This document shows, piece by piece, positions 38,081 to 53,731 of a stretch of 64,000 nt of DNA. The stretch lies in sequence record LR746137, one strand, 5' to 3'. The notes beneath the pieces are model-generated. The model was not told the origin of the DNA. It made no database searches and was given only the letters and a program-made list of their open reading frames with translations. Source of the DNA: Escherichia phage vB_EcoM_UP17. The position numbers and the translations under genes are program-made. Every line of letters starts with the position of its first letter. Positions within the stretch are counted from its first letter, which is position 1.

Positions 38081-38753
38081 GTGCTAGTGCCTCCTCATAG
38101 GAAATTCGGATTTTCCCATTTTTAATATCCTCTAAAGATGCTTTATATTCTTCCCAGTTAATCCCAATAGCAGCTTCTTTCTCTTCTTTTGTCAGATTAG
38201 CAAAAGGCATAGGATTGTTTCCAAAAACATCGTCTGGGTGGATATAAGCCATGATACGAAGTGGACAAGGTGTTGCCTGAATACCATGATTCAAACCAGC
38301 AGCTTGCAAACGGTGTCCCCATTCAGCATCTTCAAAACCATAACCGTGAGTGTAAGGACGGAAATAACCCATCTTCTCAACAACGGCACGAGAATACATT
38401 GCAAATTGACACATTGCAAGTTCCCAGAGAATAACTTCTCCTTTGCTTCCAACAACTTTATCTTTGAAATACTCCGGCATACCAAAGAAATCCCATCCTC
38501 CAGAGACAGCTTGATCTACAAAGTATGTTTCCCATCCCTCCATGACTGGGTAGCAATCGTCGTCAAAAATAAACCAATAATCATAACCTTCTTCATAAAA
38601 CTGGTGCATAAGTTCATTCCTGGCATAAGCTACACCTTTACGATCTGGATCGTTGAATACTCGAAAATCTGCACGTGGATCTGTTACAAGGTAGTCTTTA
38701 AGTGGACGGACACCTACAGTGATAACACCCACTCCGATTTTAATATTTTCCAT
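38070..38753 (-). CDS. Glycosyltransferase, GT-A fold (DxD type)
   Basis: N-terminal IGVGVITVGVRP; DDD (FIFDDDCY) motif and YGFEDAEW block typical of GT2-like enzymes. Confidence 0.45.
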   Translation of the reverse strand: MENIKIGVGVITVGVRPLKDYLVTDPRADFRVFNDPDRKGVAYARNELMHQFYEEGYDYWFIFDDDCYPVMEGWETYFVDQAVSGGWDFFGMPEYFKDKVVGSKGEVILWELAMCQFAMYSRAVVEKMGYFRPYTHGYGFEDAEWGHRLQAAGLNHGIQATPCPLRIMAYIHPDDVFGNNPMPFANLTKEEKEAAIGINWEEYKASLEDIKNGKIRISYEEALAHVK

Positions 38754-38761
38754 TTTCTCTC

Positions 38762-39325
38762 CTAAATAGTTTTACTGTGATCATGACAGTGTAATAAATG
38801 ATGTATAGACCGTTGAGGATTTGTTTGACCTAATCTGTAAATGTGAAACAGATACATTCCCCGCATCAATCCTAACCTCTTTCCTTTTTCATGTAAAGTG
38901 CGAGAGAAAATTAAGTCGAATTGGATAGATTTTTCTTCGAAAGGAATTTCATTCCACAATGATTTTCTAAAAAGCAAAAAGAAACCTGCCAGAGGTGTTC
39001 CGAAAGGAACTTCTTCAACATTTACTTTATGATATTCTCTTGCAATCTTAGCATATTCTATATGGTTTAGAATATCGGGATCATCGTTAATTTGGTTAGA
39101 GAAAAGCTGATAACCACTACCTAACCTGTTACAAGTTGCACCTATTACATCAAAAGGCGGGTTTGACATAACAAGCTCTTCAAGCAAAGATGGTTGATCA
39201 GGTAGGAGGAACATCGTATCGGTATCTCTTAAACACACCCAACTATCATCTGGAAGAACGGCAATGGCTTCATTGATAGCCTTGCCGATATTTCCTGTCA
39301 GATAGGGAGTAATATAATAAATCAT
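38762..39325 (-). CDS. Possible second GT-A-like glycosyltransferase
   Basis: 187 aa; DxD-like CLRDTDTMF motif; adjacent to three other glycosyltransferases. Confidence 0.35.
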   Translation of the reverse strand: MIYYITPYLTGNIGKAINEAIAVLPDDSWVCLRDTDTMFLLPDQPSLLEELVMSNPPFDVIGATCNRLGSGYQLFSNQINDDPDILNHIEYAKIAREYHKVNVEEVPFGTPLAGFFLLFRKSLWNEIPFEEKSIQFDLIFSRTLHEKGKRLGLMRGMYLFHIYRLGQTNPQRSIHHLLHCHDHSKTI

Positions 39326-40026: not shown

Positions 40027-40548
40027 TTAACTCCCCTTTGGTAGATAGAAACCATGCACTTTATCTCGATAAACAAGACGCATATCACGTTCCCAGTGTG
40101 TCCTTATATTCCGTTTCTTGAAGTATAGCGCACCTTTAGTAACATCTAAAACAGATCGCAATTCAGGAAAATGTTTCTCTAAATAAAGTAAACGCTCCGC
40201 TATTGCTTTTGCTTCCTGCCACTTATCTTTCTCTGTTACGTTAAAAGTTTTCGCATATGAGAATTGCCCTTTCTGGAACAAGACTCCTCTGACTGTGTTA
40301 GGGAAATAAGCATCATTTCTTCTGTTGATCACTACATTCCCAACGGCATTCATTCCTTTTTTACCCAGACCGCGACCTTCTGCGTAAATTGCACAAGCTA
40401 ATAGAATTTTATCATTATATTGCTTTGTACATTTGTGAACTACTTTAGCGGTTTTTACGTTTGCAGCTTCGGCTTTCGCCATAACAGGTGTAAATGTAAA
40501 AGCAGTTAAGGATAGTAACGCAACTGTTACAAAGTTTTTTATCAGCAA
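40027..40548 (-). CDS. Secreted cell-wall hydrolase, SleB/CwlJ-like
   Basis: Predicted signal peptide MLIKNFVTVALLSLTAFTFTPVMA; LACAIYAEGRGLG...NAVGNVVINR resembles the SleB/Hydrolase_2 core. Confidence 0.55.
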   Translation of the reverse strand: MLIKNFVTVALLSLTAFTFTPVMAKAEAANVKTAKVVHKCTKQYNDKILLACAIYAEGRGLGKKGMNAVGNVVINRRNDAYFPNTVRGVLFQKGQFSYAKTFNVTEKDKWQEAKAIAERLLYLEKHFPELRSVLDVTKGALYFKKRNIRTHWERDMRLVYRDKVHGFYLPKGS

Positions 40549-40648: not shown

Positions 40649-41251
40649 TTATGGACATTCATACCATTCTTTTTTACCACCGAAGGCCATCACCACATCG
40701 CAAATATCCAGACCAGCTTTACCTACACCATATGCTTTCAGCTTCCATTCCCCATCTTCACGAACCAGCGAAGCCACGTGGCAGATTGTGTTGCCAGCTA
40801 CTTCAGGAGCCAGGAAGTCAAAATCCAGAATTTCCACATTGCGCTCGGAGTCGAAGATTTTAAGCATACCTTCAGAAGCATGACCAAAACGTTTCAGACC
40901 TGTATCATCATCAATGGTCAGAACAAAGGCAATCTCTTGTGCATCAGGAGAGATTTTAGCCAGAGTAATATCAATCTGCTCCATGCTGCCAGTTCCATCA
41001 CGAACATCGTCACCAGCGAAGGTAGAACGTTCAGGATCAAACTTGTTAGCATAGCAAACCAGATGACGTGCAGACAGCATTTCAGGATTGCCAGCGGCAT
41101 TATGACGACAAACCAGTGCACTTACATCCAGATCCAGTTTAGAATCAGATTTCCAAGAGAATTCCAGGCGCAGTTCTTTCAGAGCCGGAGCAACTTTCTT
41201 CAGGGAAATTTTTTCGCTAGAACCTTTTTTCAGGGAAATTTTATCAGTCAT
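40649..41251 (-). CDS. TerD-domain protein
   Basis: 200 aa; N-terminal MTDKISLKKGSSEKISLKK; core LDLDVSALV ... GDDVRDGTGSMEQIDITLAKI ... IAFVLTIDD typical of the TerD/CABP fold. Confidence 0.75.
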   Translation of the reverse strand: MTDKISLKKGSSEKISLKKVAPALKELRLEFSWKSDSKLDLDVSALVCRHNAAGNPEMLSARHLVCYANKFDPERSTFAGDDVRDGTGSMEQIDITLAKISPDAQEIAFVLTIDDDTGLKRFGHASEGMLKIFDSERNVEILDFDFLAPEVAGNTICHVASLVREDGEWKLKAYGVGKAGLDICDVVMAFGGKKEWYECP

Positions 41252-41266
41252 CTTTTGTCTCCTCTA

Positions 41267-41536
41267 TTATTTAAGTGTAATACCAGTTACAGTCAATTCT
41301 ACTTCCAAAAGCTTAGATGTGTTTTGGATTGATACTAATTGTGCATGATGGTTTAGTTCTACAGCAGAATAATCATTTTCCCCATCATCTACTTTTAAAT
41401 AAACAATGATTTCACTAAGGTCTAAACCATTTTCGTCAAATGCATTTTCATAGACGAAAGTATCTCCTACATCCAAATCTTTAATGGTAAGGCATCGTTT
41501 ATTTACTTTTTGCTCATCAATTTCGAAGTTTAACAC
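41267..41536 (-). CDS. Small protein, paralog B of a duplicated pair
   Basis: 89 aa; shares (D/K)DLDVG(D/A)TF and V(E/D)L(T/E)VT(G/N)ITLK blocks with 42558..42836. Confidence 0.5.
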   Translation of the reverse strand: MLNFEIDEQKVNKRCLTIKDLDVGDTFVYENAFDENGLDLSEIIVYLKVDDGENDYSAVELNHHAQLVSIQNTSKLLEVELTVTGITLK

Positions 41537-41765
41537 TTCTTCCTCCTAATGTTATCTCCGGTTTGTATATACGAAGAATTATAGCATTTTCATTTTCTTT
41601 GTCAACCCATTCTTCATAATCGGGCCATACATGAATCTCTACTCTACTTACAATATCTTCCATTCGCACAGTCCCAATGAAATACTCTTTGAGACTGCGC
41701 ATAATGAAAGCTTCTCTCTCGCGCCAATAATTTTCTACGACTTGAGAGGCAAGCTCGTCGATCAT
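41517..41765 (-). CDS. Hypothetical protein
   Basis: 82 aa ORF, translationally coupled. Confidence 0.45.
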   Translation of the reverse strand: MIDELASQVVENYWREREAFIMRSLKEYFIGTVRMEDIVSRVEIHVWPDYEEWVDKENENAIILRIYKPEITLGGRSVKLRN

Positions 41766-42556
41766 TTTTTAGCACCTACTTTAACAACCCACTCTCCGAA
41801 CTCTTCAGATAAGAGTTTGTCATAAAGCTCTGAATCTGTCAAGTCTAAATCTTTAATGCCAATAAAACCAACATTATCATAAGCATTTGCCAGTTCTTTC
41901 AGGAAGCCAAACTTCTCATTACCAACGCCAACCATGAACCAATAAATAGGTTTATTCTTATTCTCTTCAATAAGACGACGAACAGCACTAGGATCACCAT
42001 TCTCACCATCCGTTTGGAAGAATACAACACCAGGGGTAACGTCAGCACCTGGTTCAGATACAGCTACAACCTTTTCACGCTCTACAGATACTGTTTCAGT
42101 TTTACCAAGCAGACGATTAAAGAAGCCTTTCTTTGGAGCCTCCTCTTGTACCACTTGTTTAGTGGTAATATATTTGGTAACAGTGCCAAAATACTCGTCG
42201 TAGATATCTGCCATTACAGGGGCGTAGTTTGTTCCACCTCCGATACGAACATTACGCATACATTTACCAACATAATCATCGTAAACGTCTGCTGTTGCTG
42301 GGGTAAGCTCTTGAGAACTCGTATTGAAGGCCCACATATCAATTTGTTCATTATCGTCGAACAGCATACCAAAAGGAAGCAGTTTACCTACAAAATCACT
42401 CACTACCCCACTAGAATATAGACCATGCATACTACCAGAAATATCTAGAGCACATGCTACACGAAGAACAATCTTACCTTCATTCAGGTTCTTATTCTTT
42501 TTCAGAGAGAAAGCAAGGTTTTCTTGACGTTTTTTCAGGCTGATTTTCTCGGACAT
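41762..42556 (-). CDS. vWA-domain protein (TerY-like)
   Basis: MIDAS motif DISGSM; GGTNYAPV; VVFFQTDGENGD; N-terminus MSEKISLKK resembles the start of the TerD-like protein. Confidence 0.6.
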   Translation of the reverse strand: MSEKISLKKRQENLAFSLKKNKNLNEGKIVLRVACALDISGSMHGLYSSGVVSDFVGKLLPFGMLFDDNEQIDMWAFNTSSQELTPATADVYDDYVGKCMRNVRIGGGTNYAPVMADIYDEYFGTVTKYITTKQVVQEEAPKKGFFNRLLGKTETVSVEREKVVAVSEPGADVTPGVVFFQTDGENGDPSAVRRLIEENKNKPIYWFMVGVGNEKFGFLKELANAYDNVGFIGIKDLDLTDSELYDKLLSEEFGEWVVKVGAKK

Positions 42557-42557
42557 A

Positions 42558-42836
42558 TTATTTCTCCTTCTTAAGTGTAATATTGGTAACTTCTAAATCT
42601 ACTTCCACCATATTTGTATCTGGTGGGATGCAATGAGTATAGCCTCGTTGTGCTAGTGATCCATTAATACAGATCGCACTGTTTGTGGAATTTTTAATGA
42701 ACACCAAGTTACGGTAGGTATCCAACCCTGCGTCTTCATAGGCATCATAATACATGAATGTGGCCCCTACGTCAAGATCTTCGAAAGCAATAGGTAAATC
42801 CTGACCTTTTTCTTCTTGAATATTGAATCTAAACAC
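42558..42836 (-). CDS. Small protein, paralog A (start revised to GTG with AGGAGG RBS)
   Basis: GTG at 42836 is preceded by GAGGAG and aligns with the N-terminus of paralog B; the track ATG at 42902 would overlap the upstream gene by 74 nt. Confidence 0.45.
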   Translation of the reverse strand: MFRFNIQEEKGQDLPIAFEDLDVGATFMYYDAYEDAGLDTYRNLVFIKNSTNSAICINGSLAQRGYTHCIPPDTNMVEVDLEVTNITLKKEK

Positions 42837-43392
42837 GCATACCTCCTCTACCAATTTTGAAGCCCAAATCGTAAGCTTCCTTAGTGATCTTTTGTAACTC
42901 ACTTATAGGAAGTGTTACAAGAGGATCATCTTCTTCAATTTCCATCTTGTCATCTTCTGTTTCAATGAGAGTATTATGCACTTTGTGATAAGGGTTGTCA
43001 ACACGTTTAAACTTATTCTTTTCTGTGCTGAAAAAACAATCTGGATCTTCTTCACCATCACCCCAACCTTGATTAGGATCTCCGTCAGATTGTTCTGTAG
43101 GGATTTCACCTGTAAAGTACTCTTCCAGCACCATAGCAATACCGTCCCTTGGATTTGAGGAATGCATTAAATCACAAACCTTACCCCAATCCATAGCCCA
43201 TTCGAACCGTTCACGAACGCCATTTTCATCCTCTTTTCCAGAGAAAACACAACCATAACTATCATAGTTGCCATACATCTCTTCAATAACAACACCGTCT
43301 TTCAAAAGAAAGAGGTAGCAAGGTGATCCGTCGAAAGAAGTAGAAAGGGCAGCTTTGCCCGATTCTTTGCACAAAAAACTAAAACAACCCAT
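42829..43392 (-). CDS. Hypothetical acidic protein
   Basis: 187 aa ORF. Confidence 0.5.
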   Translation of the reverse strand: MGCFSFLCKESGKAALSTSFDGSPCYLFLLKDGVVIEEMYGNYDSYGCVFSGKEDENGVRERFEWAMDWGKVCDLMHSSNPRDGIAMVLEEYFTGEIPTEQSDGDPNQGWGDGEEDPDCFFSTEKNKFKRVDNPYHKVHNTLIETEDDKMEIEEDDPLVTLPISELQKITKEAYDLGFKIGRGGMRV

Positions 43393-43589
43393 TACAAACC
43401 CTCCTTCAGATTATCAAGAGCTACAGTGGTTTCACAAAATTCTCCATAAGCTTTATGATGTTCCAGAAAAGCTTCGGGTCCACCCCAGTCATTATCTTGT
43501 GTATTCCAGCCATCAATAAAAGCATCTTCAATGATTGTGATCAGTTCCTGTCGAGTCAACGTAATGGTATCAGGCTTTGGATTATGCAT
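43392..43589 (-). CDS. Hypothetical small protein
   Basis: 65 aa ORF. Confidence 0.45.
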   Translation of the reverse strand: MHNPKPDTITLTRQELITIIEDAFIDGWNTQDNDWGGPEAFLEHHKAYGEFCETTVALDNLKEGL

Positions 43590-43755
43590 CTTCTTCCTCC
43601 TCTAAAATATGAAACCCATAGCTACAATAGTCCTGAAAGGTTTCGTGTGCAAGATCTTCTATATCCTCTTGAGACATATCATCTTCAATTTCGATATCCA
43701 CAACCTCATTGCATCCACACCAAGCAGTTTCAATATTCACCCGTAATATTTTCAT
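43582..43755 (-). CDS. Hypothetical small acidic protein (57 aa)
   Basis: ATG overlaps the upstream stop (TAATG) and its stop overlaps the downstream start; contains WCGC. Below track cutoff. Confidence 0.3.
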   Translation of the reverse strand: MKILRVNIETAWCGCNEVVDIEIEDDMSQEDIEDLAHETFQDYCSYGFHILEEEEDA

Positions 43756-43952
43756 TACTCCTCCTCCTCATTGAAGTCAATATCTGCAAGGAGTTGGAAT
43801 TTACGGAAGTTACGACAACCTTCATAAATATAACAATCACGACAAACTGCTAGAACACTTGGGGGATATATGCCTCCCATCGGTGCGAATCGTTTTTCGT
43901 CATCATAACGGACACCAATGTCTTCATCAATTATATAGATACGGATTCTCAT
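43755..43952 (-). CDS. Small Cys-containing protein
   Basis: 65 aa; CRDC ... C motif. Confidence 0.4.
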   Translation of the reverse strand: MRIRIYIIDEDIGVRYDDEKRFAPMGGIYPPSVLAVCRDCYIYEGCRNFRKFQLLADIDFNEEEE

Positions 43953-45061
43953 TTACCAAGCCCTCGTTTCACAGCAGCTACCATCCCGTCTTCCAGAGAT
44001 TGAACTTCATTAATATAATCAACACGAGCAGCACGGGCTTCCGTATTGATGCGGTTAGTTTCTTCCAACATCTTAACCAAGTTTTCCTGATCGTGACGCA
44101 GAGTTTCAATATCCAACACTTGACGGTTAGCCAGTGCTGCTGCTTCGATCTGATTCTGTGTAGCAAGATCGCTACCCAGTTTAATTGCCAGGTTAAATTC
44201 ATCAAGAACGTTATTCTGCGTCTCTGCTGCTTTCATTTGACGTAAGCTCTCGATATACATTGAGAAGTTAGCAGAGTAAGCAGGAATAACATTATTTACT
44301 ATGTTACGCGCAGATCGCATTAAGCTTGCAGAAACTTTTTGCATACCTTGTACACGCGGTCCCATTTGGACACACAGTAGGCGCAATGCCTTTAAATCTG
44401 CAATACGAATCTCCAGAAGATCCAAAGTGTCTCGGATCACTTGTCGCTGTTCTACTGCATCTTCTGGAAGAGCAGCCAAAGCTTGTTCTTCTTTTTCATA
44501 GGTTGCTGTTAGAAGCTGCATATCTCGGTTCAAACTTGCAGCATATTGTCCAATAGCTTGATGCAGTTTTTCAAGATATACCAAGGAATCTTCTTCTTTG
44601 CGAATATCCATTTGAAGGTTCTTTACCAACTCTTCAATACGGTTATTAACATTATCAAACTCCCCAAACAGGTCTTCTTTCATACCCATAACTTTTTTAA
44701 TGAGTTTAGTAATACCTTTGCTTTGTTTAATAGAGTTTGGATCAAGTTGTTTTGCCTGTTTAATCAAAGCTGTGAGTCGTTCACTCATCTGATCGCCTTG
44801 ATTACTACGTTGATGTTTTAATACCTCGGCATTCAAGGAACGCAAGGTTGTTCCTGCCTCTGCCCCAATCTCTTCGATCTCTTGTCGGGTCATAGAAGGC
44901 AAAACTGGAACGTCTTGTGGTGCCGCTGGTGCATAAACAGGACTGGCATCTAACACGCTTGGAGCGAATACAGATTTACTTGCATCTGTTGTTGCAGCAA
45001 ATACGCTCATTTCAGGCTTCTTCTGACCACCAGTAGCTGCTTTTAAAAATGGACTTGTCAT
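43949..45061 (-). CDS. TelA/KlaA-like (toxic anion resistance family) protein, tentative
   Basis: 370 aa, largely helical/coiled-coil composition; size and placement inside a cluster with TerD, TerC and vWA genes. Call is by gestalt, not a specific motif. Confidence 0.4.
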   Translation of the reverse strand: MTSPFLKAATGGQKKPEMSVFAATTDASKSVFAPSVLDASPVYAPAAPQDVPVLPSMTRQEIEEIGAEAGTTLRSLNAEVLKHQRSNQGDQMSERLTALIKQAKQLDPNSIKQSKGITKLIKKVMGMKEDLFGEFDNVNNRIEELVKNLQMDIRKEEDSLVYLEKLHQAIGQYAASLNRDMQLLTATYEKEEQALAALPEDAVEQRQVIRDTLDLLEIRIADLKALRLLCVQMGPRVQGMQKVSASLMRSARNIVNNVIPAYSANFSMYIESLRQMKAAETQNNVLDEFNLAIKLGSDLATQNQIEAAALANRQVLDIETLRHDQENLVKMLEETNRINTEARAARVDYINEVQSLEDGMVAAVKRGLGK

Positions 45062-45648
45062 TCTTCATTCTCCTCTTCTGCATCTCTTATATATGGTGAA
45101 ACACCGTACTCTTTAGCTACTTTAACCCAATCGTCCCATTTATACAACCATAATTTTCCTTCGGTCCCTTCTTTATCTGATTTCAACCACATATTCGGTT
45201 GCTTACCTGGGTACATGCGATTAGGTTTACGATTATAACCTCTAACACATCTTGTCGCAAACCTATCTACCAGAACAAGAACATATTTATATTCGTGGTT
45301 CAACGGCTCTTTGGAAGTGGCTTTAGGATTAGCCCCTAATTCTGCTGCCAGTTTTTGCCAATGAGCACCGTGCCTACTAAACTTACCCATACAACCATCA
45401 ATAGCATGAGCAATTTCGTGCTTCATTGTATCCACGATCATATCTCTTGTGGAGTTCTTATGCAAGTGCCAATTTACAACAACAATTTTATCTCGGTAGT
45501 TGCACCAACCGAAAGAGTTATTCACTTTGTTTCTAACACAAGCTTTATATCCTGCTTCACGTAACATGTTGTAGTAAACAGGAAAATCTTCTTTTATTTC
45601 CTGCATCACTTCCCACCACAAGAGTTGCAAGTCTCTCTCGGTATGCAT
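45058..45648 (-). CDS. Zinc metallopeptidase-like protein (HExxH, SprT-like)
   Basis: HEIAH motif in MKHEIAHAIDG; 196 aa; acidic C-terminal tail. Confidence 0.45.
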   Translation of the reverse strand: MHTERDLQLLWWEVMQEIKEDFPVYYNMLREAGYKACVRNKVNNSFGWCNYRDKIVVVNWHLHKNSTRDMIVDTMKHEIAHAIDGCMGKFSRHGAHWQKLAAELGANPKATSKEPLNHEYKYVLVLVDRFATRCVRGYNRKPNRMYPGKQPNMWLKSDKEGTEGKLWLYKWDDWVKVAKEYGVSPYIRDAEEENEE

Positions 45649-45651
45649 AAC

Positions 45652-46245
45652 TTACACCTTAAAAGCGAAATGCGTGGTCGTGGCTTCAAAATCAGGGCCA
45701 GATAAACTTGCACTGAAATCTGAAATATTTGTAATTAAAAAGCTTTTATGCATACCTAACACAGCCACGCTTTCAATATCTTCTACTAACATTTCAATCA
45801 TGTTAGAAACATGGCTGAACGTAGAGTTTTGTTTTTTGATGGTGTAGAAAGAAAGATTCCCACCTGCTATATAAGATACCTCTTCAAAATCTTTAATCGT
45901 ATATTGTGTGCCATCAGTAAAGAAAATGGTAGCTTTATTAGTAGCACGTTTCTTGTTTTTTGGTCCTTTTTTACGTTTACTGCGAGTAGGCAAACCGTTT
46001 GGAAATACCGTAGCTACAAATTCTTCAGGAGAAACCTCCTTACCGAAATCATAACCGTAAGAAACAGCGTCTATAAACTCGTCGTCTTCATTTTTAAAAT
46101 AATGAAAATAGGGCCAATTTGAGAGATTATCAAGCATCTTATGCTCATCCACAGCAGAGAACGTATCCCTCAAAGCCCGTGTGATTTGCAAAGCATTAGG
46201 CAAACTTTTAACACCTGTAATGGAAGTACGAATAGAAATTGTCAT
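45652..46245 (-). CDS. Hypothetical protein
   Basis: 197 aa ORF. Confidence 0.5.
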   Translation of the reverse strand: MTISIRTSITGVKSLPNALQITRALRDTFSAVDEHKMLDNLSNWPYFHYFKNEDDEFIDAVSYGYDFGKEVSPEEFVATVFPNGLPTRSKRKKGPKNKKRATNKATIFFTDGTQYTIKDFEEVSYIAGGNLSFYTIKKQNSTFSHVSNMIEMLVEDIESVAVLGMHKSFLITNISDFSASLSGPDFEATTTHFAFKV

Positions 46246-46259
46246 TGTTTTTCTCCTTA

Positions 46260-46697
46260 TTAACGTCGCTTGCTACGAGATGAACTCTTTTTACTTAAAG
46301 GGCTATTGTAAGATTTACGAGTTGTATAGCTACTATTTGTTTTAAAAGTTTGTCTCGGCTTTTCATAAGTTTTTATCTCTTGTTTAGGCTTACTATAAAA
46401 ATTAGTTTTCGGTTTAGGTGTATTATAATGCTTATTAATAATCGTTCTGTTATCGTTATAATCCCCACTGCTACGATTACTACCGCCACTCATCATATGC
46501 CCTAACAACATACCTGTAGCAAACTCACCAACACCGCTACTACTAGAACCGCCACCATTGTTGATAATAGTTGTATCTCCGTCAGATCCTTGTTGAGCGT
46601 ATTGTTGAGGAGGTTGTTGGTATTGTGCAGGATTTGTTTCATCCTCGCAAGCTGTTAAAAAGATACAACCAATTAAAATCAGGGCTAGTTTTTTCAT
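46260..46697 (-). CDS. Lipoprotein (start revised to internal ATG)
   Basis: MKKLALILIGCIFLTAC signal peptide with lipobox; GAGG RBS upstream of the ATG at 46697; Gly/Ser-rich mature region. Confidence 0.5.
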   Translation of the reverse strand: MKKLALILIGCIFLTACEDETNPAQYQQPPQQYAQQGSDGDTTIINNGGGSSSSGVGEFATGMLLGHMMSGGSNRSSGDYNDNRTIINKHYNTPKPKTNFYSKPKQEIKTYEKPRQTFKTNSSYTTRKSYNSPLSKKSSSRSKRR

Positions 46698-46884
46698 ATT
46701 TGCTTTCCTCGTTTTGGCTATTAATACATCTGTGTTTGAAATCTCCAGAGAAGCAATAAAGTTGCTCTCCATCTCGGTATAAACTCACTTTACTGCCGTT
46801 GATTACGCTTGTCAATACAAAAATTACAACAAACAACCCTATTGCAAAACAAATATTTTCAAACACAATCAACAAGTATTTCAT
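46639..46884 (-). CDS. Small membrane protein
   Basis: 81 aa; hydrophobic N-terminus LLIVFENICFAIGLFVVIFVLT; ATG overlaps the upstream stop (ATGA); its 3' end overlaps the lipoprotein start by about 59 nt. Confidence 0.4.
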   Translation of the reverse strand: MKYLLIVFENICFAIGLFVVIFVLTSVINGSKVSLYRDGEQLYCFSGDFKHRCINSQNEESKYEKTSPDFNWLYLFNSLRG

Positions 46885-47231
46885 TTTAAAAATACCTCAT
46901 CATCAGTTTCATTATCCCAGAAGAACAAATCCCAACCATTAGGATCATTCCACTTGGCTGCTGGAGAAGTCCAGAGTTGTTCGATATCAATATTCAAAAC
47001 TTCACCGTTTCGTTTTGAAACAGCTTTAGTTAATTCCCAACGAGATACAGGTTCTACCTCTCCTGAACCACTTCCACAACAAGCTACTACGTTAGGAGGA
47101 AGGTTAATTGGATCTTTGGTCACAATCATAACGCTTACCCCAGGGTAAACTTTTGAAAGATAATCTGAAACGTAATCCACATCACCACATAAGTCCCAAA
47201 CAAGTTCTTGAATTTCATCAAAATTGCTCAT
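46881..47231 (-). CDS. Hypothetical acidic protein
   Basis: 116 aa ORF. Confidence 0.5.
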   Translation of the reverse strand: MSNFDEIQELVWDLCGDVDYVSDYLSKVYPGVSVMIVTKDPINLPPNVVACCGSGSGEVEPVSRWELTKAVSKRNGEVLNIDIEQLWTSPAAKWNDPNGWDLFFWDNETDDEVFLK

Positions 47232-47240
47232 AAGTCTCTC

Positions 47241-47266
47241 CTATAAAATAGCCTCCCGAAGGAGGC
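47241..47266 (-). terminator. Rho-independent terminator (minus strand) after the TerC-like gene
   Basis: GCCTCC-CGAA-GGAGGC hairpin (47251-47266) followed on the minus strand by UAUUUUAUAGG. Confidence 0.5.
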
Positions 47267-47273
47267 TCATCTA

Positions 47274-48248
47274 TTAAACAGCAGCTTCTTCTTTTTCAGG
47301 GAAGATAAAGCTTGCAATAACACCAAGAGCTAATGTGCCTAGAACAATCATCAAACTTACGTTAGGGGAAATATCATGCGGGAGGAATGACCACTTGGCA
47401 TGAAGTGTTTCACCGAACGGGTGATACATAAGTTTAGCACCAACAAACACCAGAACCACAGCAACAGCTTTCTCTAAGTGAACCAAATATTTCACAGCAA
47501 CACTTAACACAAAGAAAAGTGCACGTAAACCAAGAACAGCCATCAGCATTGCAGAATAAACTAGCAGAGGTTCTTGTGTCACACCGATCACAGCCGGAAC
47601 TGAATCAAAAGAGAAGACAATATCTGTAAGCTCAATAACAAACACACAAAGAAGAGCAGGAGTTGCATATTTAATACCATTCTTAATGGTAATGAACTTT
47701 TCACCATCCAGCGCATTGTGCACAGGCAGAACTTTACCTACTAAACGAACAGCCCAATGCTTAGAGTAATCAATATCCTCTTCTTCGTCACCACCTTTGA
47801 TGATAGCCACGGCAGACCAAGCTACAATCAAACCGAACAACACTTGGACCGACCAATGAAGGTTAAACAAAGCGGTCCCTGCTGCAACAAAAATACCTCG
47901 GAAGACAATGGCTCCTGCAATCCCCCAAAGTAGAATTTTATGTTGGAGATGTGTGCTCTTAATTCCAAAGCTTGCAAAAATTGCCATGAACACCATCAGG
48001 TTATCTACAGAAAGACTCTTTTCCAACACATAACCACTTAGGAAAAGCGCGGCAAACTCTTTACCATGTTCTACCCAAATGAATGCGTAATATCCTAAAG
48101 CTAAAGCAATCCAAAAAACAGACCAAAGCAAAGCAGATTTAATTCCAATTTCTTTATTCTCTTTATGACCAAAGAAATCGATACCAATAGACAATGCCAA
48201 AATACTAATTAAAACAACTACATCAATAATTGGGAAACCGAGTTGCAT
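47274..48248 (-). CDS. TerC-family integral membrane protein
   Basis: 324 aa, multiple hydrophobic helices; EKSLSVDNLMVFMAIF matches the TerC/Alx signature. Confidence 0.7.
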   Translation of the reverse strand: MQLGFPIIDVVVLISILALSIGIDFFGHKENKEIGIKSALLWSVFWIALALGYYAFIWVEHGKEFAALFLSGYVLEKSLSVDNLMVFMAIFASFGIKSTHLQHKILLWGIAGAIVFRGIFVAAGTALFNLHWSVQVLFGLIVAWSAVAIIKGGDEEEDIDYSKHWAVRLVGKVLPVHNALDGEKFITIKNGIKYATPALLCVFVIELTDIVFSFDSVPAVIGVTQEPLLVYSAMLMAVLGLRALFFVLSVAVKYLVHLEKAVAVVLVFVGAKLMYHPFGETLHAKWSFLPHDISPNVSLMIVLGTLALGVIASFIFPEKEEAAV

Positions 48249-48327
48249 TCTTTTCTCCTCTCTTTGCGGGGAACTATTCCCCGCTTCATGTGATATATCT
48301 TACTCTTTTTAAGAATTATGTCAACAC

Positions 48328-48555
48328 TTATTTTGTTGAATGAGAGGAAAAGATTCCTCGTAATACCGCCAGAATAAACGAAACACAAACCACGGTCCAG
48401 AAGGTTACTGGGACAGTGATATCTGCATGACCCATAACTTCAGCAACATAGTTGTAAGCCAGCAACAGTAACCAAGCTGGAATCAAACTAAGCATAAAAG
48501 CAATAACAAAAAAGCTTACCACTGCAACAATACCTGCAAAAACACCCATACTCAT
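48328..48555 (-). CDS. Small membrane protein (two TM helices)
   Basis: 75 aa, almost entirely hydrophobic. Confidence 0.5.
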   Translation of the reverse strand: MSMGVFAGIVAVVSFFVIAFMLSLIPAWLLLLAYNYVAEVMGHADITVPVTFWTVVCVSFILAVLRGIFSSHSTK

Positions 48556-48561
48556 CTCCTC

Positions 48562-49035
48562 TTAAAGTTTATAAATAGTCACATCGTGACCTGTTTTTAC
48601 TAAAGTTTCTTCAATCATCACTTGGATGATAGCCCAATTGCCTCCAGCATATCCAGCGCCAATCATAGGTAAGCCGATCTTACATTTTTGGTCACGGAGA
48701 AGCAAATCATTAGCCATAGCTATTAGTGCATCGTAAAGTGCATCATAGTCCAACTGACGACCTTTAGCATTGTATCCGTAACGGTATTGCCCGTATAGAT
48801 TATATACCAAAGGGTCTGATTGTTCGTCTGGCACCCCTAAACTAAAACAACCTAGTTTACTTTGATCACCAGCCATTGTGTCTAAGTCTGCTGCATATGC
48901 GTAAGGAAATGCTTGTTTGATTTGTGGGGCAATACCTGCCCCCATATTACACATACAGTTGCAACAATGAGCAATAACAGTTACTTCACCTGCTTTAGCG
49001 GCATCAATAAGATTACCTGTTTTCATTTTAAGCAT
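48562..49035 (-). CDS. Macro-domain protein (ADP-ribose binding/processing)
   Basis: VIAHCCNCMCNMGAGIA and IGAGYAGG resemble the macro-domain VNAAN...GGGV and G-rich phosphate-binding loops; 157 aa. Confidence 0.55.
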   Translation of the reverse strand: MLKMKTGNLIDAAKAGEVTVIAHCCNCMCNMGAGIAPQIKQAFPYAYAADLDTMAGDQSKLGCFSLGVPDEQSDPLVYNLYGQYRYGYNAKGRQLDYDALYDALIAMANDLLLRDQKCKIGLPMIGAGYAGGNWAIIQVMIEETLVKTGHDVTIYKL

Positions 49036-49047
49036 TTTAGCTCCTTA

Positions 49048-49875
49048 TTACAGAATGTGTTGTTTTGTGTAACGATCCAAGAATTCAAAGTTTTCAGCAT
49101 ACTTTGAAATTCGGTTGTAACCTTCTCCCAAACATCCGAAGAAAAGTTGCTCTACATAGTAGTGTGGCAATTGGCTAAGAATGATTTTGAAGTCTTCGTG
49201 ATTTTGGCCCATAAGATACTTAATAGGACGAACAAGGCACTGTGCATCACGTTCTTCATTAATCATTTTAACAAACGCTTCTGGTGTATTAATGTAGTTA
49301 AAATTCAGTTTAGCTTCGGTATCTGCTTGATTACCTTCATATTTTGCAAAATACAAGAAGTAAACATCATTTTTAACTTGATTTTCATCAAGGATCTCAA
49401 TCAGTTTGTCTTCATGCGTTCCAGTGATATTTACATCATCAATGAATACAAGCTTCTTATCACCCCAGAATTCTTTGTTGCAGTAGAATGTATCCCCATC
49501 AATAAGTTTCTTACGACTAGCTTTATCCAAGAAACCATAATCGTTGATATAGCTAACTTTACGATGAATAATGTCCAGTTCTGCTGAACGACCTTGATCA
49601 TATTGTGATTGCAACATGTTAAAGTAATTAATAAAATGATCTGTCATCATTGTTGCAGCATTATGCACATGGTTGTAAGGAGAAGGAATGATAACAAATT
49701 GTTCCCCAATATGTTTCATTGCCACTTGAGCAAAAAACTGAAGTGCCAATTCTTTACCCATACGACGCGCGGCTTGGTTACTACCAAATTTCAATTTTGA
49801 ATAATCTTGGATATCAAAAGTAGCAGTTTCCAGGTCATCAAATTTATTTGCAAAAATTTGAGTTTGATTACGCAT
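49048..49875 (-). CDS. Phosphoribosyltransferase (PRTase-type) protein
   Basis: KKLVFIDDVNITGTHED matches the PRPP-binding hhhhDDhxxTGxT signature; 275 aa. Confidence 0.55.
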   Translation of the reverse strand: MRNQTQIFANKFDDLETATFDIQDYSKLKFGSNQAARRMGKELALQFFAQVAMKHIGEQFVIIPSPYNHVHNAATMMTDHFINYFNMLQSQYDQGRSAELDIIHRKVSYINDYGFLDKASRKKLIDGDTFYCNKEFWGDKKLVFIDDVNITGTHEDKLIEILDENQVKNDVYFLYFAKYEGNQADTEAKLNFNYINTPEAFVKMINEERDAQCLVRPIKYLMGQNHEDFKIILSQLPHYYVEQLFFGCLGEGYNRISKYAENFEFLDRYTKQHIL

Positions 49876-50524
49876 TTACAATTTCTCCTCTTTTAAGTTT
49901 CTCTAGTAAGTCATTAGGGTTCTTAATATGACAGAAGTTAAATCCTAAGTCAACACATTTTCCATCATATTCTTCACTATCGCCTACGTGCAATACTTCG
50001 TGCCCTAACAGAGGGATCGGAGAATACGTGAGCGTGCGAGCAAAGAATCGCGGATCTGGTTTACAAAGTAAAGCTTCATCCGAGAAATGGGTGAACTCAA
50101 AACAATTCCAACTATCAAACTTACAAGCACGACGCAGGATATCCCCTGATATGAAGTTGGTATTGCTCTTAATACTCAAATCATAACGTCCCGAAAGATA
50201 CAGCAAGTACATCGGCAGATCCACGGCTACGTGTGGTGGAAACTTAAGGAACCACTGTTCACACTCGAAACGAAGCTTTGCAGACTTCCAAGGTGTTATC
50301 CCAAGTTCAGAACCAAGTCTTTCCCAGGCGTATGCTGCACACTCGGCTTTGCCTTGAAGTGCTGCATTATCCAGTTCCTTTTTGATCTTCTTATAAGCTG
50401 CTCTTGCTTCCACTTCCGTAATATCTCCATATTTTGCGATAGTCCAGGCTCGCATGTCTGCGTAATTGGAGTTTGCTGTGATCAGTGTGTTCCATACATC
50501 AAAAGAGATATGTTTAATAGTCAT
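49868..50524 (-). CDS. HAD-superfamily hydrolase/phosphatase
   Basis: Motif I-like ISFDVWNTLI (DxYGTL-type variant), KPDP motif, HVGDSEEYD motif IV. Confidence 0.55.
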   Translation of the reverse strand: MTIKHISFDVWNTLITANSNYADMRAWTIAKYGDITEVEARAAYKKIKKELDNAALQGKAECAAYAWERLGSELGITPWKSAKLRFECEQWFLKFPPHVAVDLPMYLLYLSGRYDLSIKSNTNFISGDILRRACKFDSWNCFEFTHFSDEALLCKPDPRFFARTLTYSPIPLLGHEVLHVGDSEEYDGKCVDLGFNFCHIKNPNDLLEKLKRGEIVNA

Positions 50525-50525
50525 A

Positions 50526-51131
50526 TTAAGCCCACCATGCGTCTAAGTTAAGATTACTGTCCACTACCACTTGTTCTATGTGGTAGCCTTTTATCTGTAT
50601 CCCACTGTTCAAGAGCATATCATACGCTTCATTGAAACGCAACTTATCTTCTGCGGAATATAAGCGAGCATTATAAAATCGGTAATCAACTTCTTCAGCA
50701 TTAGAAGAAATACGGAAGAAGTTTGTTTCTACTTCGGGATCACTTGCTGAAGTCTTAATGTGAACTTCTCCGTAATTTTCTTTACTTAGATCCATGAAAA
50801 GAACACAGGCAACATGTTTAAACATTCGTTCCAGTTTGTAACGAACAACATTGAAACCTGCATTCTCAAGTTTTTCTACACACTGCAACATTAAAGTAGT
50901 GTCGAGATCGCTTTGATACTTTGTTAACATACGATCACGTTGAGACTTTGTATCCCGATGTAAATCAATTGTTGTGCATTTGGCACCAATAATCTTAGCT
51001 GCTTTCATCAACTCTTCAGAACTAACGTTAGATAAAGTAAGATGAAAATGGGCTTTCCACACTTTTTTAGCAGGGACACCAAAAGATTTATCCCCACTAT
51101 TCGGCATGTTGACTACTACACTATGTTGCAT
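50526..51131 (-). CDS. Hypothetical protein
   Basis: 201 aa ORF between the HAD gene and the nrd genes. Confidence 0.5.
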   Translation of the reverse strand: MQHSVVVNMPNSGDKSFGVPAKKVWKAHFHLTLSNVSSEELMKAAKIIGAKCTTIDLHRDTKSQRDRMLTKYQSDLDTTLMLQCVEKLENAGFNVVRYKLERMFKHVACVLFMDLSKENYGEVHIKTSASDPEVETNFFRISSNAEEVDYRFYNARLYSAEDKLRFNEAYDMLLNSGIQIKGYHIEQVVVDSNLNLDAWWA

Positions 51132-51146
51132 TACTTATCTCCTCAC

Positions 51147-51371
51147 TTAAAATGGAAGTCTTTGAAGTTCATCTCCTCCGATATCAAGTAATTTAGCAAC
51201 ATCTCGATCAGAAAGCAACTCTTTTCTTTGTAAAATATCCACAAGGGTTGCAAGAATGTCCTTAACGTCCCGATCACTGTTCTTCAAAAGTTCTCCTGCC
51301 GTCCCTACTCTATCTCCTACAGCAAAATATGTAACCATGAAACCTCCTAAGTTAATCTGATTGCCAACCAC
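51147..51371 (-). CDS. Hypothetical small protein
   Basis: 74 aa ORF. Confidence 0.45.
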   Translation of the reverse strand: MVGNQINLGGFMVTYFAVGDRVGTAGELLKNSDRDVKDILATLVDILQRKELLSDRDVAKLLDIGGDELQRLPF

Positions 51372-51822
51372 TTGCCGTTTTGGTCCATAATCTTTGATTA
51401 TCTGACCCTCTGAAAGGTTTTGTAGTTGGATTGTTTATTTCATACTTTCCGTCTACAATAATGTCAACAAGATTTTTAATATACAAAGGCACTTCCTCAA
51501 AAGTATATCCTGTATACACCATTATATCTTTGCTTGACCCATAAACGTCTCTAACCTTTTCTATAAGGTTTTTAACATTGTAAATATTCTGCGGATCTAA
51601 TGGCTCCCCTCCTAAAATTGTTAAACCTTTTACAAACGGTCTTGACAAATCTTTTAAAACTTGCTCTACATTTTCGTGAGTGAACGGTTTCCCATAAGAA
51701 TAAGACCAGGCTTTTTGGTTAAAACAGCCACGACAACCGTGGCTACAACCACTAACCCAGAGGGAGCACCTAACTCCCTCACCATTAATAAGATCTACAG
51801 GTTCATATCCTGCAAAATTCAA
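51352..51822 (-). CDS. nrdG: Anaerobic ribonucleotide reductase activating protein (radical SAM)
   Basis: CSHGCRGC radical-SAM cysteine cluster; 156 aa; 4-nt overlap with the upstream NrdD gene. Confidence 0.75.
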   Translation of the reverse strand: MNFAGYEPVDLINGEGVRCSLWVSGCSHGCRGCFNQKAWSYSYGKPFTHENVEQVLKDLSRPFVKGLTILGGEPLDPQNIYNVKNLIEKVRDVYGSSKDIMVYTGYTFEEVPLYIKNLVDIIVDGKYEINNPTTKPFRGSDNQRLWTKTASGWQSD

Positions 51823-53633
51823 AGATGTTTCTCCCTTTGCAAAACTTCCTGCATTTTACCTTTGTTGTAAGGCCGTGAATTAGGGGCAGAAAGATACCCT
51901 GATACACGTCTAACTACAGAAATAGTTTCTTCTTCATGGTTGCCACAATCAGGACACTCAAACCCTTTAGCCGTTGCCTTAAATTCTCCATGAAAACCAC
52001 ACTTAAAGCATTGATCCACGGGCTGATTAATACCAAAATAGTGAATATGTTCATAAGCGTAGTCTACTAAAGTCTCCAAAGCTTCTAAGTTATTCTTTAA
52101 GTTTGGTGTTTCGACATAACTTATGTTACCACCATTACTAATCTGTGCAAAACCTGCTTCATAATCCCATTTTTCAAAAGGATTTGTTACCAACCACACA
52201 GGTTGATGAAAAGAGTTAGTAAGATAGTCTCTTTCTACCAAACCTGGGTATTTTTCATTTAAAGCTGTTGCAAACTTATAGCACAAAGATTCTGCTGGAG
52301 TTCCATAGAGACTAAACGCCAGCTTAGATCGTTCTTTAAACACAGCACACACATCTTTCATATGTTGCAGAATGCTTTTACCAAGTTCCTTTTTATCTTT
52401 TTCTTCTGGATAAAGGATTTCCAAAGCTTCGGCAAGACCTACATAACCAATACTAATAGAAGCATAACCACCTTCAAACAAAACACCAATTTCATCATTG
52501 GCATTTAAACGCGCTAAAGCCCCTTCCATGAAAAGAATAGGGTTTTCAGATGCTTTGGTATGTCTGATACGGTTTACACGTAGCATGTGAGCATCGTAGG
52601 CTATCTCCATATGTTTATTAAGAAGATCGGTGAAAGATTCTCCTTTACTTCTCGCTTCCGCAGCGATCAGAGGTAAGTTGATAGAAACTACTCCAAGGTT
52701 GAATCGTCCATCGTATTTTTCTCCTTGTTCGGTGGCATAGTACGACAAAAAGGAACGACAACCCATACTCGTAACAGTACCATCTGCTGATCCCGTAACT
52801 TCTTTGTTCAAAGGAACAGAAATAAAATCTGGATAAATACGATCAGCACAACATGCCAAAGCTTGTTGCTTAAGGTCATAGTTAGGATCACTAGGTTTCA
52901 TGTTAACACCTTCTTGTAAAAAGAAAATAACTTTAGGGAATACAGGCGTTACATGATCTTTGCCTAGACCGTTACTATGCACTTTAAGATAGTTAGCTGT
53001 AATCATTCTGCCAAAAACAGAGGTATCCAGACCCATACTGATTGTAATAAAAGGAGATTGTCCATTAACACTCATTAAAGTATTAACCTGATACAAGAGA
53101 GTTTGCATAGCATCATATACATCTTGTTCGGTCATTTCTAGGGCTTCTTTCCTTGCATAACAACCGTAGCGACGTTTGGTTATCTCCATGTTTTTAAGGA
53201 AACTAGCTTCAACATAAGGACTAAGACCTTTATCAATGTGCGCACACGTCTGACCTCCATACTGACTGGAGGCAACAGCTTGGATAATTTGAGTTAGCAC
53301 TGTGGTAGCTACCCCAATAGATTTTGGTTTTTCTATCTGTGCGGCTCCGATCTTAAAACCATTCTCTAACATATCTTGATAATTAACAAGACAACAGTTT
53401 GTAAGAGGAGAGAGTAGATAATCCAAGTCGTGAATATGTCCAAAACCTTCTGTATGCCACTCTGACAAGTTTTTTGGCAGTATCTGTGTCATTGCCATAT
53501 GTTTGCTTAAAATCCCCGCCAAGAGATCCCTATGCGTGTTAACGAGGTGGGAAGGTTTGTTTGCATTCTCTCTAGTGTATGTTTCTGAAGTGCGATCTAA
53601 AAAAGAAAAAACATCTTGGTACAAATCTTTCAT
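51819..53633 (-). CDS. nrdD: Anaerobic ribonucleoside-triphosphate reductase
   Basis: 604 aa; C-terminal zinc ribbon CFKCG ... CPDCG and glycyl-radical motif RVSGYLS. Confidence 0.8.
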   Translation of the reverse strand: MKDLYQDVFSFLDRTSETYTRENANKPSHLVNTHRDLLAGILSKHMAMTQILPKNLSEWHTEGFGHIHDLDYLLSPLTNCCLVNYQDMLENGFKIGAAQIEKPKSIGVATTVLTQIIQAVASSQYGGQTCAHIDKGLSPYVEASFLKNMEITKRRYGCYARKEALEMTEQDVYDAMQTLLYQVNTLMSVNGQSPFITISMGLDTSVFGRMITANYLKVHSNGLGKDHVTPVFPKVIFFLQEGVNMKPSDPNYDLKQQALACCADRIYPDFISVPLNKEVTGSADGTVTSMGCRSFLSYYATEQGEKYDGRFNLGVVSINLPLIAAEARSKGESFTDLLNKHMEIAYDAHMLRVNRIRHTKASENPILFMEGALARLNANDEIGVLFEGGYASISIGYVGLAEALEILYPEEKDKKELGKSILQHMKDVCAVFKERSKLAFSLYGTPAESLCYKFATALNEKYPGLVERDYLTNSFHQPVWLVTNPFEKWDYEAGFAQISNGGNISYVETPNLKNNLEALETLVDYAYEHIHYFGINQPVDQCFKCGFHGEFKATAKGFECPDCGNHEEETISVVRRVSGYLSAPNSRPYNKGKMQEVLQREKHL

Positions 53634-53704: not shown

Positions 53705-53731
53705 AAAAAAGGCGCAAAGTGCGCCTTTAAG
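53705..53731 (-). terminator. Rho-independent terminator (minus strand)
   Basis: GGCGC-AAAGT-GCGCC hairpin followed on the minus strand by UUUUUUGAUUUU, just after the stop at 53734. Confidence 0.6.

Follow-up and report, generated by a model that had tools for sequence, protein, structure and literature searches.

A conserved Ter-like gene region in Escherichia phage vB_EcoM_UP17 and related phages of the subfamily Stephanstirmvirinae

Escherichia phage vB_EcoM_UP17 carries six genes of tellurite-resistance (Ter) families within about 10.5 kb of co-oriented minus-strand sequence, at positions 40,649 to 51,131 of the window (the whole stretch of 64,000 nucleotides analysed, from record LR746137). 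These genes encode TerD, a vWA protein, TelA, TerC, a HAD-superfamily hydrolase and a phosphoribosyltransferase (PRTase) of the PRTase_3 family (Table 1). Five Ter-associated Pfam families score above their cut-offs inside 10 kb, far beyond chance. The window is a Phapecoctavirus (phAPEC8-like) genome, one of the ~150-kb E. coli myoviruses of the subfamily Stephanstirmvirinae. Within it the region is a mosaic, with Ter-family genes (6 of ~25) scattered among ~20 other co-oriented genes, and not an operon-like system; its setting is a replication and nucleotide-metabolism region in which a probable lipoprotein and several small proteins of the membrane are also encoded. We tentatively favor, at somewhat less than even confidence, the reading that this is a conserved Ter-like accessory region of the Stephanstirmvirinae that protects the inner membrane of the infected cell.

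Evidence for conservation comes from within the genus and beyond it. Among deposited phage genomes of the genus Phapecoctavirus, the best 25 matching records have 96.7-98.7% DNA identity to the 10.5-kb region. Of the deposited phage records, 61 cover at least 80% of the region and 130 share at least some of it. The phAPEC8 equivalents of the block are gp066 to gp047, flanked by an endolysin and four glycosyltransferase genes on one side and by nrdG and nrdD on the other. Phage phi92, from another genus of the same subfamily, served as the comparison phage and was matched by tblastn. Its gene order is the same: nrdD, nrdG, HAD, PRTase, macro, a small membrane protein and TerC in the first half of the block, followed by a membrane protein, a lipoprotein, TelA, p187, a small protein, vWA, TerD and the endolysin. 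Proteins of the syntenic block are 36-81% identical between phi92 and the window; the SprT-like gene, p201, p116 and p82 are absent from phi92 in this comparison. The GC content is ~0.38-0.40, and the GC skew is uniformly negative between 28 and 62 kb of the window, which fits a single long minus-strand gene block.

An initial annotation, made from the letters of the window alone, had proposed domains for eight of these genes. All of the open reading frames (ORFs) that it named are present on the minus strand where it placed them, and profile searches bear out the folds it proposed for TerD, vWA, TelA, the SprT-like (HExxH) protein, TerC, macro, PRTase and HAD. The macro and HAD calls are weak in Pfam and are backed by matches in the Protein Data Bank (PDB), the HAD call also by motif alignment. 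The SLSVDN signature of TerC and the HEIAH motif of the metallopeptidase are present as read, and the reported adjacency to nrdDG holds, with nrdG and nrdD directly upstream according to both the annotation of relatives and the phi92 tblastn matches.

The four Ter-family proteins outside the enzyme pair are assigned by several lines of evidence. TerD, the sole TerD of the cluster, matches the Klebsiella TerD structure 2kxt (E 1.5e-15), retains the DLDxSA motif and is 81% identical to phi92 gp172. The vWA protein, 67% identical to phi92 gp173, has the residues of an intact metal-ion-dependent adhesion site (MIDAS), with DISGS, GGTNY and TDG motifs readable in the translation, as the initial annotation had recognized; its description there as TerY-like gives way to vWA-TerF-like, the Pfam family that it matches, without TerY_C. 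The TelA call, which had been considered weak, is strong in Pfam (Table 1), and the protein also matches phrog_5890 'tellurite resistance'. TerC scores 320 bits against NCBIfam TIGR03718, the TerC/Alx metal homeostasis membrane protein (cut-off 246), and shares 49-50% identity with plasmid-borne bacterial proteins annotated as TerC/Alx and 52% with TerC of a betaproteobacterial Ter locus, L031. Individual Ter genes have homologues in 148-224 phage records, counted as records with a homologue among 50,697 phage records: 148 for TerD, 156 for PRTase_3 and 224 for TelA.

The HAD-PRTase_3 pair connects the region to bacterial Ter loci. The PRTase has the PRTase fold, the acidic pair and the loop that binds phosphoribosyl pyrophosphate (PRPP). 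The HAD protein aligns along its length with PDB 2om6 (E 7.6e-5), and motif I, FDVWNTL, is common to both. HAD motifs I-IV (D9-x-W11-x-T13, S120-N121, K155 and G181-D182...D187) do not vary in an alignment with 13 homologues, 14 copies in all from phages and bacterial Ter loci. The Asp+2 position of motif I is an invariant Trp (DxWxT) in phage and bacterial Ter-locus copies alike, as in 2om6, and this residue suggests chemistry other than plain phosphate hydrolysis. In every inspected locus HAD lies directly upstream of PRTase_3, and its stop codon usually overlaps the PRTase_3 start.

In bacteria, where one genome per species was scanned, the same pair is found inside Ter loci. Two or three TerD genes flank it in Bacteroidota metagenome-assembled genomes (MAGs), TerD adjoins it in an Arthrobacter MAG, and the betaproteobacterial locus L031 reads TerC-TerD-vWA-TerD-vWA-TerY(TerY_C)-PP2C-kinase-HAD-PRTase_3-PRTase_3. 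Because the HAD motifs of phage and Ter-locus copies are identical, including the unusual Trp, they form one family, and the phage pair is orthologous to the pair in bacterial Ter loci. This supports a link to the Ter 'nucleoside-like metabolite' module and upholds the likeness to bacterial ter neighborhoods first noted in the initial annotation.

The spread of the two families among phages is similar. Compared only as counts by host genus, PRTase and TerD records number 104 and 105 for Escherichia, 10 and 8 for Klebsiella, 7 and 7 for Brevundimonas, and 4 and 4 for Caulobacter. As the phages that bear PRTase_3 and TerD represent only a few independent lineages, these matching counts are suggestive and not proof. 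TerD and PRTase are ~28-40 kb apart in the Brevundimonas and Caulobacter phages (170.9 and 198.8 kb, respectively, in CcrColossus), whereas the six genes lie within 10 kb here.

TerC is set apart from its neighbors by its own transcription signals. A sigma-70-like promoter occupies the gap upstream of the gene, the sole sizeable gap nearby, and is followed by a short hairpin in the 5' untranslated region and then a ribosome-binding site. The annotation of phAPEC8 independently marks a 'putative host dependent promoter' at the same position, and because of this marking the TerC promoter alone was used from the promoter scan. An intrinsic-terminator-like hairpin with a T run directly follows TerC. 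With its own promoter, its terminator and the phAPEC8 annotation, TerC looks like a self-contained unit for host RNA polymerase, apparently monocistronic. A manganese riboswitch controls many bacterial TerC genes; such a riboswitch or another RNA element was considered upstream of TerC and rejected, as the region gave no Rfam match at E values as high as 1. Elsewhere, a perfect sigma-70 consensus with an extended -10 TG (TTGACA-16-TATAAT, 41578-41605, minus strand) lies inside coding sequence (p89, p82); this promoter, ~330 bases upstream of TerD, could drive TerD separately.

The region has what characterizes a Ter system: a TerD protein, TerC, TelA together with a TerF-type vWA protein, and a PRTase and HAD module orthologous to that of bacterial loci. 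A Pfam scan of the 20 ORFs between 40.6 and 51.1 kb found no match to TerB, PP2C, kinase or TerY_C, nor to ATP-grasp or a further biosynthetic enzyme family. The initial claim of a whole Ter assemblage is therefore too broad, given also a single TerD and the bystander status of macro and the SprT-like protein. PADLOC, run on 10 proteins, matched only macro (to DarG) and p201 (to AbiEi) and none of the Ter proteins.

Comparison with known systems places the region near several of them without matching any one throughout. Like L031, the phage has TerC, TerD, vWA and the orthologous HAD-PRTase_3 pair with identical catalytic motifs. However, L031 has several TerD genes, a TerY with TerY_C, PP2C, a kinase and two PRTase_3 genes, whereas the phage has one TerD, a TerF-type vWA, TelA and one PRTase_3. 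The TerY-P triad, all three components of which are in L031, is not recognizable among the scanned phage ORFs, where the vWA is of the TerF type and lacks TerY_C. The terZABCDEF operon of plasmids and O157 (R478 type) comprises terZ to terF, with TelA outside it. The phage resembles it in TerC (~50% identical), in the TerD fold of one protein and in a vWA domain of the TerF type, but has no TerZ, TerA or TerE paralogues, has no TerB among the scanned ORFs, carries its single TerD separate from a stand-alone vWA instead of fused to it as in TerF, and follows another order (TerC...TelA...vWA...TerD). A TelA-family protein encoded along with TerD and TerC recalls B. subtilis yceCDEFGH, which contains TerD paralogues, TerC and the TelA-like YceH. 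With respect to RK2 kilA/telAB, counterparts of KlaA and TelB were not identified in the phage, and unrelated ORFs stand between the phage genes.

Anantharaman, Iyer and Aravind are said to have defined the Ter functional network in 2012, with loci in bacteria that reportedly carry a biosynthetic module. In 2021, Iyer, Anantharaman, Krishnan, Burroughs and Aravind (Viruses 13:63, PMC7824862) described Ter systems of phages that include PRTase and HAD. Among them are a fairly complete system, PRTase and HAD included, in Acinetobacter jumbo phage vB_AbaM_ME3 and shorter operons of TerD, TerC, TerF and TelA in Caulobacter jumbo phages; 'certain other related smaller tailed phages' are explicitly covered, and competition with or exclusion of superinfecting phages is the proposed role (PMC7824862). 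The present region has the same families (TerD, TerC, TerF-type vWA, TelA, PRTase and HAD), again in a virulent tailed phage, but in a ~150-kb non-jumbo myovirus as compared with the jumbo phages of that study. Klebsiella phage phiKp34 has terC, terF-vWA, terD and telA, and TerD genes are strongly transcribed by gut jumbo phages. Close relatives of the window bear the GenBank labels TelA-like, TerC/alx, TerD/general stress protein, VWA, SprT-like, phosphoribosyltransferase and REG-2-like HAD hydrolase.

A phage-borne Ter cluster is thus already known in kind, its genes deposited and partly annotated in >100 genomes. The suggestion that the arrangement is unusual does not survive the synteny in phi92, the 61 records with at least 80% coverage and the published phage Ter systems (PMC7824862). 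The alternative that it would prove ordinary, conserved and of assigned function stood in part: it is conserved and ordinary for its group, and no function has been assigned to it by experiment. As a genome-scan finding the region adds little, given that the genes are deposited and the phage Ter idea is published. In the searched literature no paper describing the Stephanstirmvirinae block as a unit was found.

In the membrane-protection reading that we favor, the Ter genes would be expressed early to middle in infection. TerC would alter divalent-cation flux across the inner membrane, and a cation-sensitive assembly of TelA, the vWA protein with its MIDAS and TerD, which binds cations, would form on the cytoplasmic face of that membrane. 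Together, the Ter proteins would hold the inner membrane of the infected cell intact until lysis against a second insult. That insult could be a superinfecting phage injecting its DNA, a pore-forming colicin or an abortive-infection effector that targets the membrane. The PRTase would join PRPP to a base and HAD would process the resulting 5'-phosphate, yielding a nucleoside-like small molecule that signals to the TerD part or is sensed by it. The macro, SprT-like, p201 and p187 proteins would be neighbors outside the system. A cut-down anti-phage or stress system, in which the HAD-PRTase_3 pair makes a PRPP-derived nucleoside-like molecule and TerD, vWA, TelA and TerC respond by sealing the inner membrane against these insults, is possible and on balance unlikely. 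If such a system exists, it would give the Ter metabolite, predicted long ago, its first chemical identity and a phage Ter gene its first tested function.

The envelope direction of this proposal is suggested by the flanking of TerC by p75, p81 and the probable lipoprotein, all conserved in phi92, and by the host-type promoter upstream of TerC that is also marked in phAPEC8. The enzyme pair is linked to the Ter proteins because the orthologous pair occurs in the Bacteroidota, betaproteobacterial and Arthrobacter loci and because PRTase_3 and TerD occur in almost the same phage groups. The colicins resisted by means of the ter cluster are pore-forming. Inhibition of phages, resistance to colicins and resistance to tellurite are the phenotypes attributed to the plasmid ter cluster (Whelan et al. 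1995, as cited in PMC8386662), and by analogy the proposed membrane protection would mirror the first two. This phage group has a compact version of Ter, with one each of TerD, vWA, TelA, TerC and the HAD-PRTase pair, which should be genetically tractable; the cluster-bearing phages include isolates on E. coli K-12 MG1655.

Several observations weigh against membrane protection by a single Ter system. The acidic calcium-binding loop of TerD (GDNRTGEGDGDDE) is kept only in part (GDDVRDGTGSMEQ), and TerB is missing from the scanned ORFs. The invariant Trp of HAD replaces the general acid/base Asp+2, so that plain phosphatase chemistry is not assured. Promoter-like sites overall number 50 as compared with 44 +/- 6 in shuffled sequence, i.e. 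they are not enriched; together with the interspersed unrelated genes and a monocistronic-looking TerC, this leaves co-regulation not established. An experiment on any phage Ter gene was not found in the searchable literature. Moreover, Ter genes are absent from the 10 kb around the closest bacterial relatives of the pair, which are rhizobial (~40% identity), and Xanthomonas phage XaC1, metagenomic T4-like jumbo contigs and Rhizobium phages have none within 10-15 kb of the pair.

These last contexts also argue for two unrelated modules lying side by side, a mobile HAD-PRTase_3 unit and a membrane group of TerC, TelA, vWA and TerD. The pair would then act in RNA or nucleotide repair or salvage, or would make or destroy a nucleotide-derived signal in counter-defence. 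In XaC1 and the T4-like jumbo contigs the pair stands among RNA-repair and translation genes, and in a Rhizobium phage it adjoins a nicotinamide mononucleotide (NMN) adenylyltransferase/Nudix gene; in the window itself, the generic macro gene and a promoter lie between the pair and TerC. On the other side, the orthologous pair is embedded in Ter loci of three bacterial phyla, and PRTase_3 and TerD occur in nearly the same phage groups even when unlinked. We regard the two-module explanation as a serious but rather doubtful alternative.

TerC could serve metal homeostasis for the phage, as an exporter of manganese, zinc or calcium or as a metalation factor, tuned by the cation-binding TerD and vWA. 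The three would set divalent metal levels in the infected cell, e.g. to suit phage metalloenzymes or to cope with metal stress in gut or sewage. TerC homologues export manganese in Bacillus and E. coli. The phage protein scores as a TerC/Alx family metal homeostasis protein, is ~50% identical to plasmid proteins annotated alike, and is moron-like in having its own promoter and terminator; in addition, K. pneumoniae terC reportedly contributes to zinc and tellurite resistance (PMC12054061). However, metal homeostasis would leave TelA, vWA and HAD-PRTase_3 unexplained, and the lack of any riboswitch or other Rfam element upstream of TerC also speaks against it, making it improbable. Less probable still is interference with a host Ter defence, whether by decoys, by dominant-negative subunits or by making or consuming a Ter signal. 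Phage inhibition is reportedly encoded by the plasmid ter cluster (Whelan et al. 1995), and the TerC family is common on plasmids of Klebsiella, Escherichia and Enterobacter (2,646 plasmid records match). The divergence between phage and host proteins (TerD E 1.5e-15, TerC ~50%) nevertheless makes subunit mimicry less likely, and phages that were isolated on K-12 MG1655 also keep the cluster. K-12 is not known to carry a ter operon. Literal tellurite resistance conferred on the host, as GenBank labels and statements in phage genome papers would have it, is very improbable: TerD is single, host survival is not at stake for a virulent phage, and TerB, which is required for tellurite resistance in the plasmid operon, is not among the 20 scanned ORFs. 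Tellurite is also rare in the environment, and the name Ter reflects an assay rather than a natural role.

Table 1. Positions of Ter-family genes, neighboring genes and transcription signals in the window
Feature	Position	Strand	Assignment and remarks
TerD-domain protein, 200 amino acids	40649..41251	minus	Pfam TerD E 3.2e-28, 98.9 bits (cut-off 25.3)
vWA protein	41762..42556	minus	vWA-TerF-like, stand-alone, TerF C-terminal type; Pfam E 1.7e-37, 130 bits
TelA-family protein, 370 amino acids	43949..45061	minus	Pfam TelA E 3.2e-33, 115.6 bits, residues 59-361
TerC/Alx integral membrane protein	47274..48248	minus	Pfam TerC E 3e-40, 138 bits; SLSVDN
PRTase_3	49048..49875	minus	ComF-like type I phosphoribosyltransferase; Pfam E 2.2e-41, 142.5 bits; PRPP loop LVFIDDVNITGTHE intact
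HAD-superfamily hydrolase	49868..50524	minus	REG-2-like; Pfam 21.2 bits, below cut-off 26.4
Sigma-70-like promoter	48297..48324	minus	TTGACA-16-TAAGAT; upstream of TerC
Intrinsic-terminator-like hairpin and T run	47250..47267	minus	Directly after TerC
p75, small protein	48328..48555	minus	Several hydrophobic segments; upstream of TerC; 60% identical to phi92 gp184
p81, single-transmembrane protein	46639-46884	minus	Envelope protein along with the lipoprotein; downstream of TerC
Probable lipoprotein	46260..46772	minus	Likely true start is internal MKKLALILIGCIFLTAC; downstream of TerC
Macro domain protein, 157 amino acids	48562..49035	minus	TARG1/DarG-like; Pfam 22.4 bits (cut-off 22.0)
SprT-like metallopeptidase	45058..45648	minus	HExxH, HEIAH in translation; Pfam E 4.2e-9, 36.7 bits (cut-off 25.6)
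p187, conserved phage protein	42829..43392	minus	76% identical to phi92 gp175
p114, small protein	42558..42902	minus	Directly upstream of vWA; paralogue of p89; 61% identical to phi92 gp174
p89, small protein	41267..41536	minus	Directly upstream of TerD; paralogue of p114
p201, 201 amino acids	50526..51131	minus	Probably a separate accessory gene
nrdG	51352-51822	minus	Upstream flank; by annotation in relatives; 69% identical to phi92
nrdD	51819-53633	minus	Upstream flank; by annotation in relatives; 78-81% identical to phi92
Terminator-like hairpin	53708-53728		Upstream of nrdD

Macro, the SprT-like protein, p201 and p187 occur widely without Ter partners and are therefore taken as generic phage accessory genes, bystanders to the Ter families. 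The macro protein matches PDB macrodomains (5e3b 3.5e-12, TARG1 3e-6, DarG 1e-5) and is comparable to T4 Tk.4-like macro domains, TARG1 and the macro part of DarG, but lacks the DarT-binding C-terminal domain of the latter. Its residues 1-156 align with positions 1-144 of the 329-position PADLOC DarG model (4e-10), and only residues 3-49 match NCBIfam DarG, at 35 bits against a cut-off of 250. It is not a DarG: its 157 amino acids hold the macro part only, and DarT was identified in no scanned ORF of the cluster. Membership of macro in a pathway with PRTase and HAD was considered and ruled out, as macro homologues are in 2,874 phage records, T4 included, compared with ~150 for PRTase_3.

Similarly, the stop codon of the SprT-like gene overlaps the TelA start, and a partnership with TelA was considered and ruled out. 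The gene is absent from phi92, and its homologues, in 363 phage records that include Slopekvirus, Vibrio and Streptomyces phages, are mostly in phage groups outside the TerD and TelA lists. Homologues of p187 (n=314) are mostly 130-145 amino acids long; as a hidden Ter component p187 was ruled out, both inspected contexts being phage-like contigs without Ter genes.

The small proteins p89 and p114 are paralogues by BLASTP (33% identity, E 5e-13), and p89 has no Pfam family match. A single copy of this type is present in phi92, upstream of its vWA gene. Of the envelope genes downstream of TerC, the lipoprotein and p81 are 36% and 51% identical, respectively, to their phi92 counterparts, and the shorter lipoprotein gene model is used in EF1-1.

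For p201, neither a Pfam family nor a convincing fold match was found. The protein matches two PADLOC 'AbiEi' antitoxin models over nearly its full length (E 3.6e-13 and 3.1e-12), and its homologues in distant phages do not adjoin HAD-PRTase. On one distant phage contig (L036) an Acb1 gene comes directly downstream of the p201 homologue, and a NADAR gene follows ~4 kb further downstream. p201 may be an anti-defence gene, e.g. an antitoxin mimic.

Four consecutive glycosyltransferase genes (37133-39325, minus strand), conserved in phAPEC8 and phi92, run towards ~35 kb just downstream of the Ter block and the endolysin. The endolysin itself, which adjoins TerD (40027-40548, minus strand), has a hydrophobic N-terminal segment, MLIKNFVTVALLSLTAFTFTPVMA, that suggests export of the signal-peptide or signal-anchor-release type.

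Outside this phage group, an RNA ligase adjoins the HAD-PRTase_3 pair in XaC1 and in the T4-like jumbo contigs (L003, 12-24 kb; L004 and L005, 8-13 kb; L006, 4-11 kb). A DUF2828/DUF7788 protein also adjoins the pair in L004-L006, and 2H-SAK is near it in L004 and L005. Other genes near the pair encode a CCA-adding enzyme, Nudix and YqeY (L003, L004) and PTH2 (L004). This association of the pair with RNA-repair genes falls outside the Ter interpretation.

Some of the matching records carry unexpected labels. MG065650.1 and OP562383.1 have ~98% DNA identity over 10.5 kb despite non-Escherichia phage host labels, and MG065656.1, likewise labelled, encodes a PRTase that is 65% identical, a phi92-type value. 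OR584014.1, labelled a Pseudomonas phage, encodes a TelA protein that is 90.5% identical. These four records, labelled as phages of Campylobacter, Acinetobacter and Pseudomonas, probably name incorrect hosts or come from contaminated isolates. A contig binned into a 'Proteobacteria bacterium' MAG (L009) is a Phapecoctavirus fragment. Its HAD (9352-10005) is 77% identical to that of the window, whereas p201 and PRTase on either side reach 99.5% and 99.6% identity, respectively, and a divergent HAD between near-identical neighbors points to local allele replacement.

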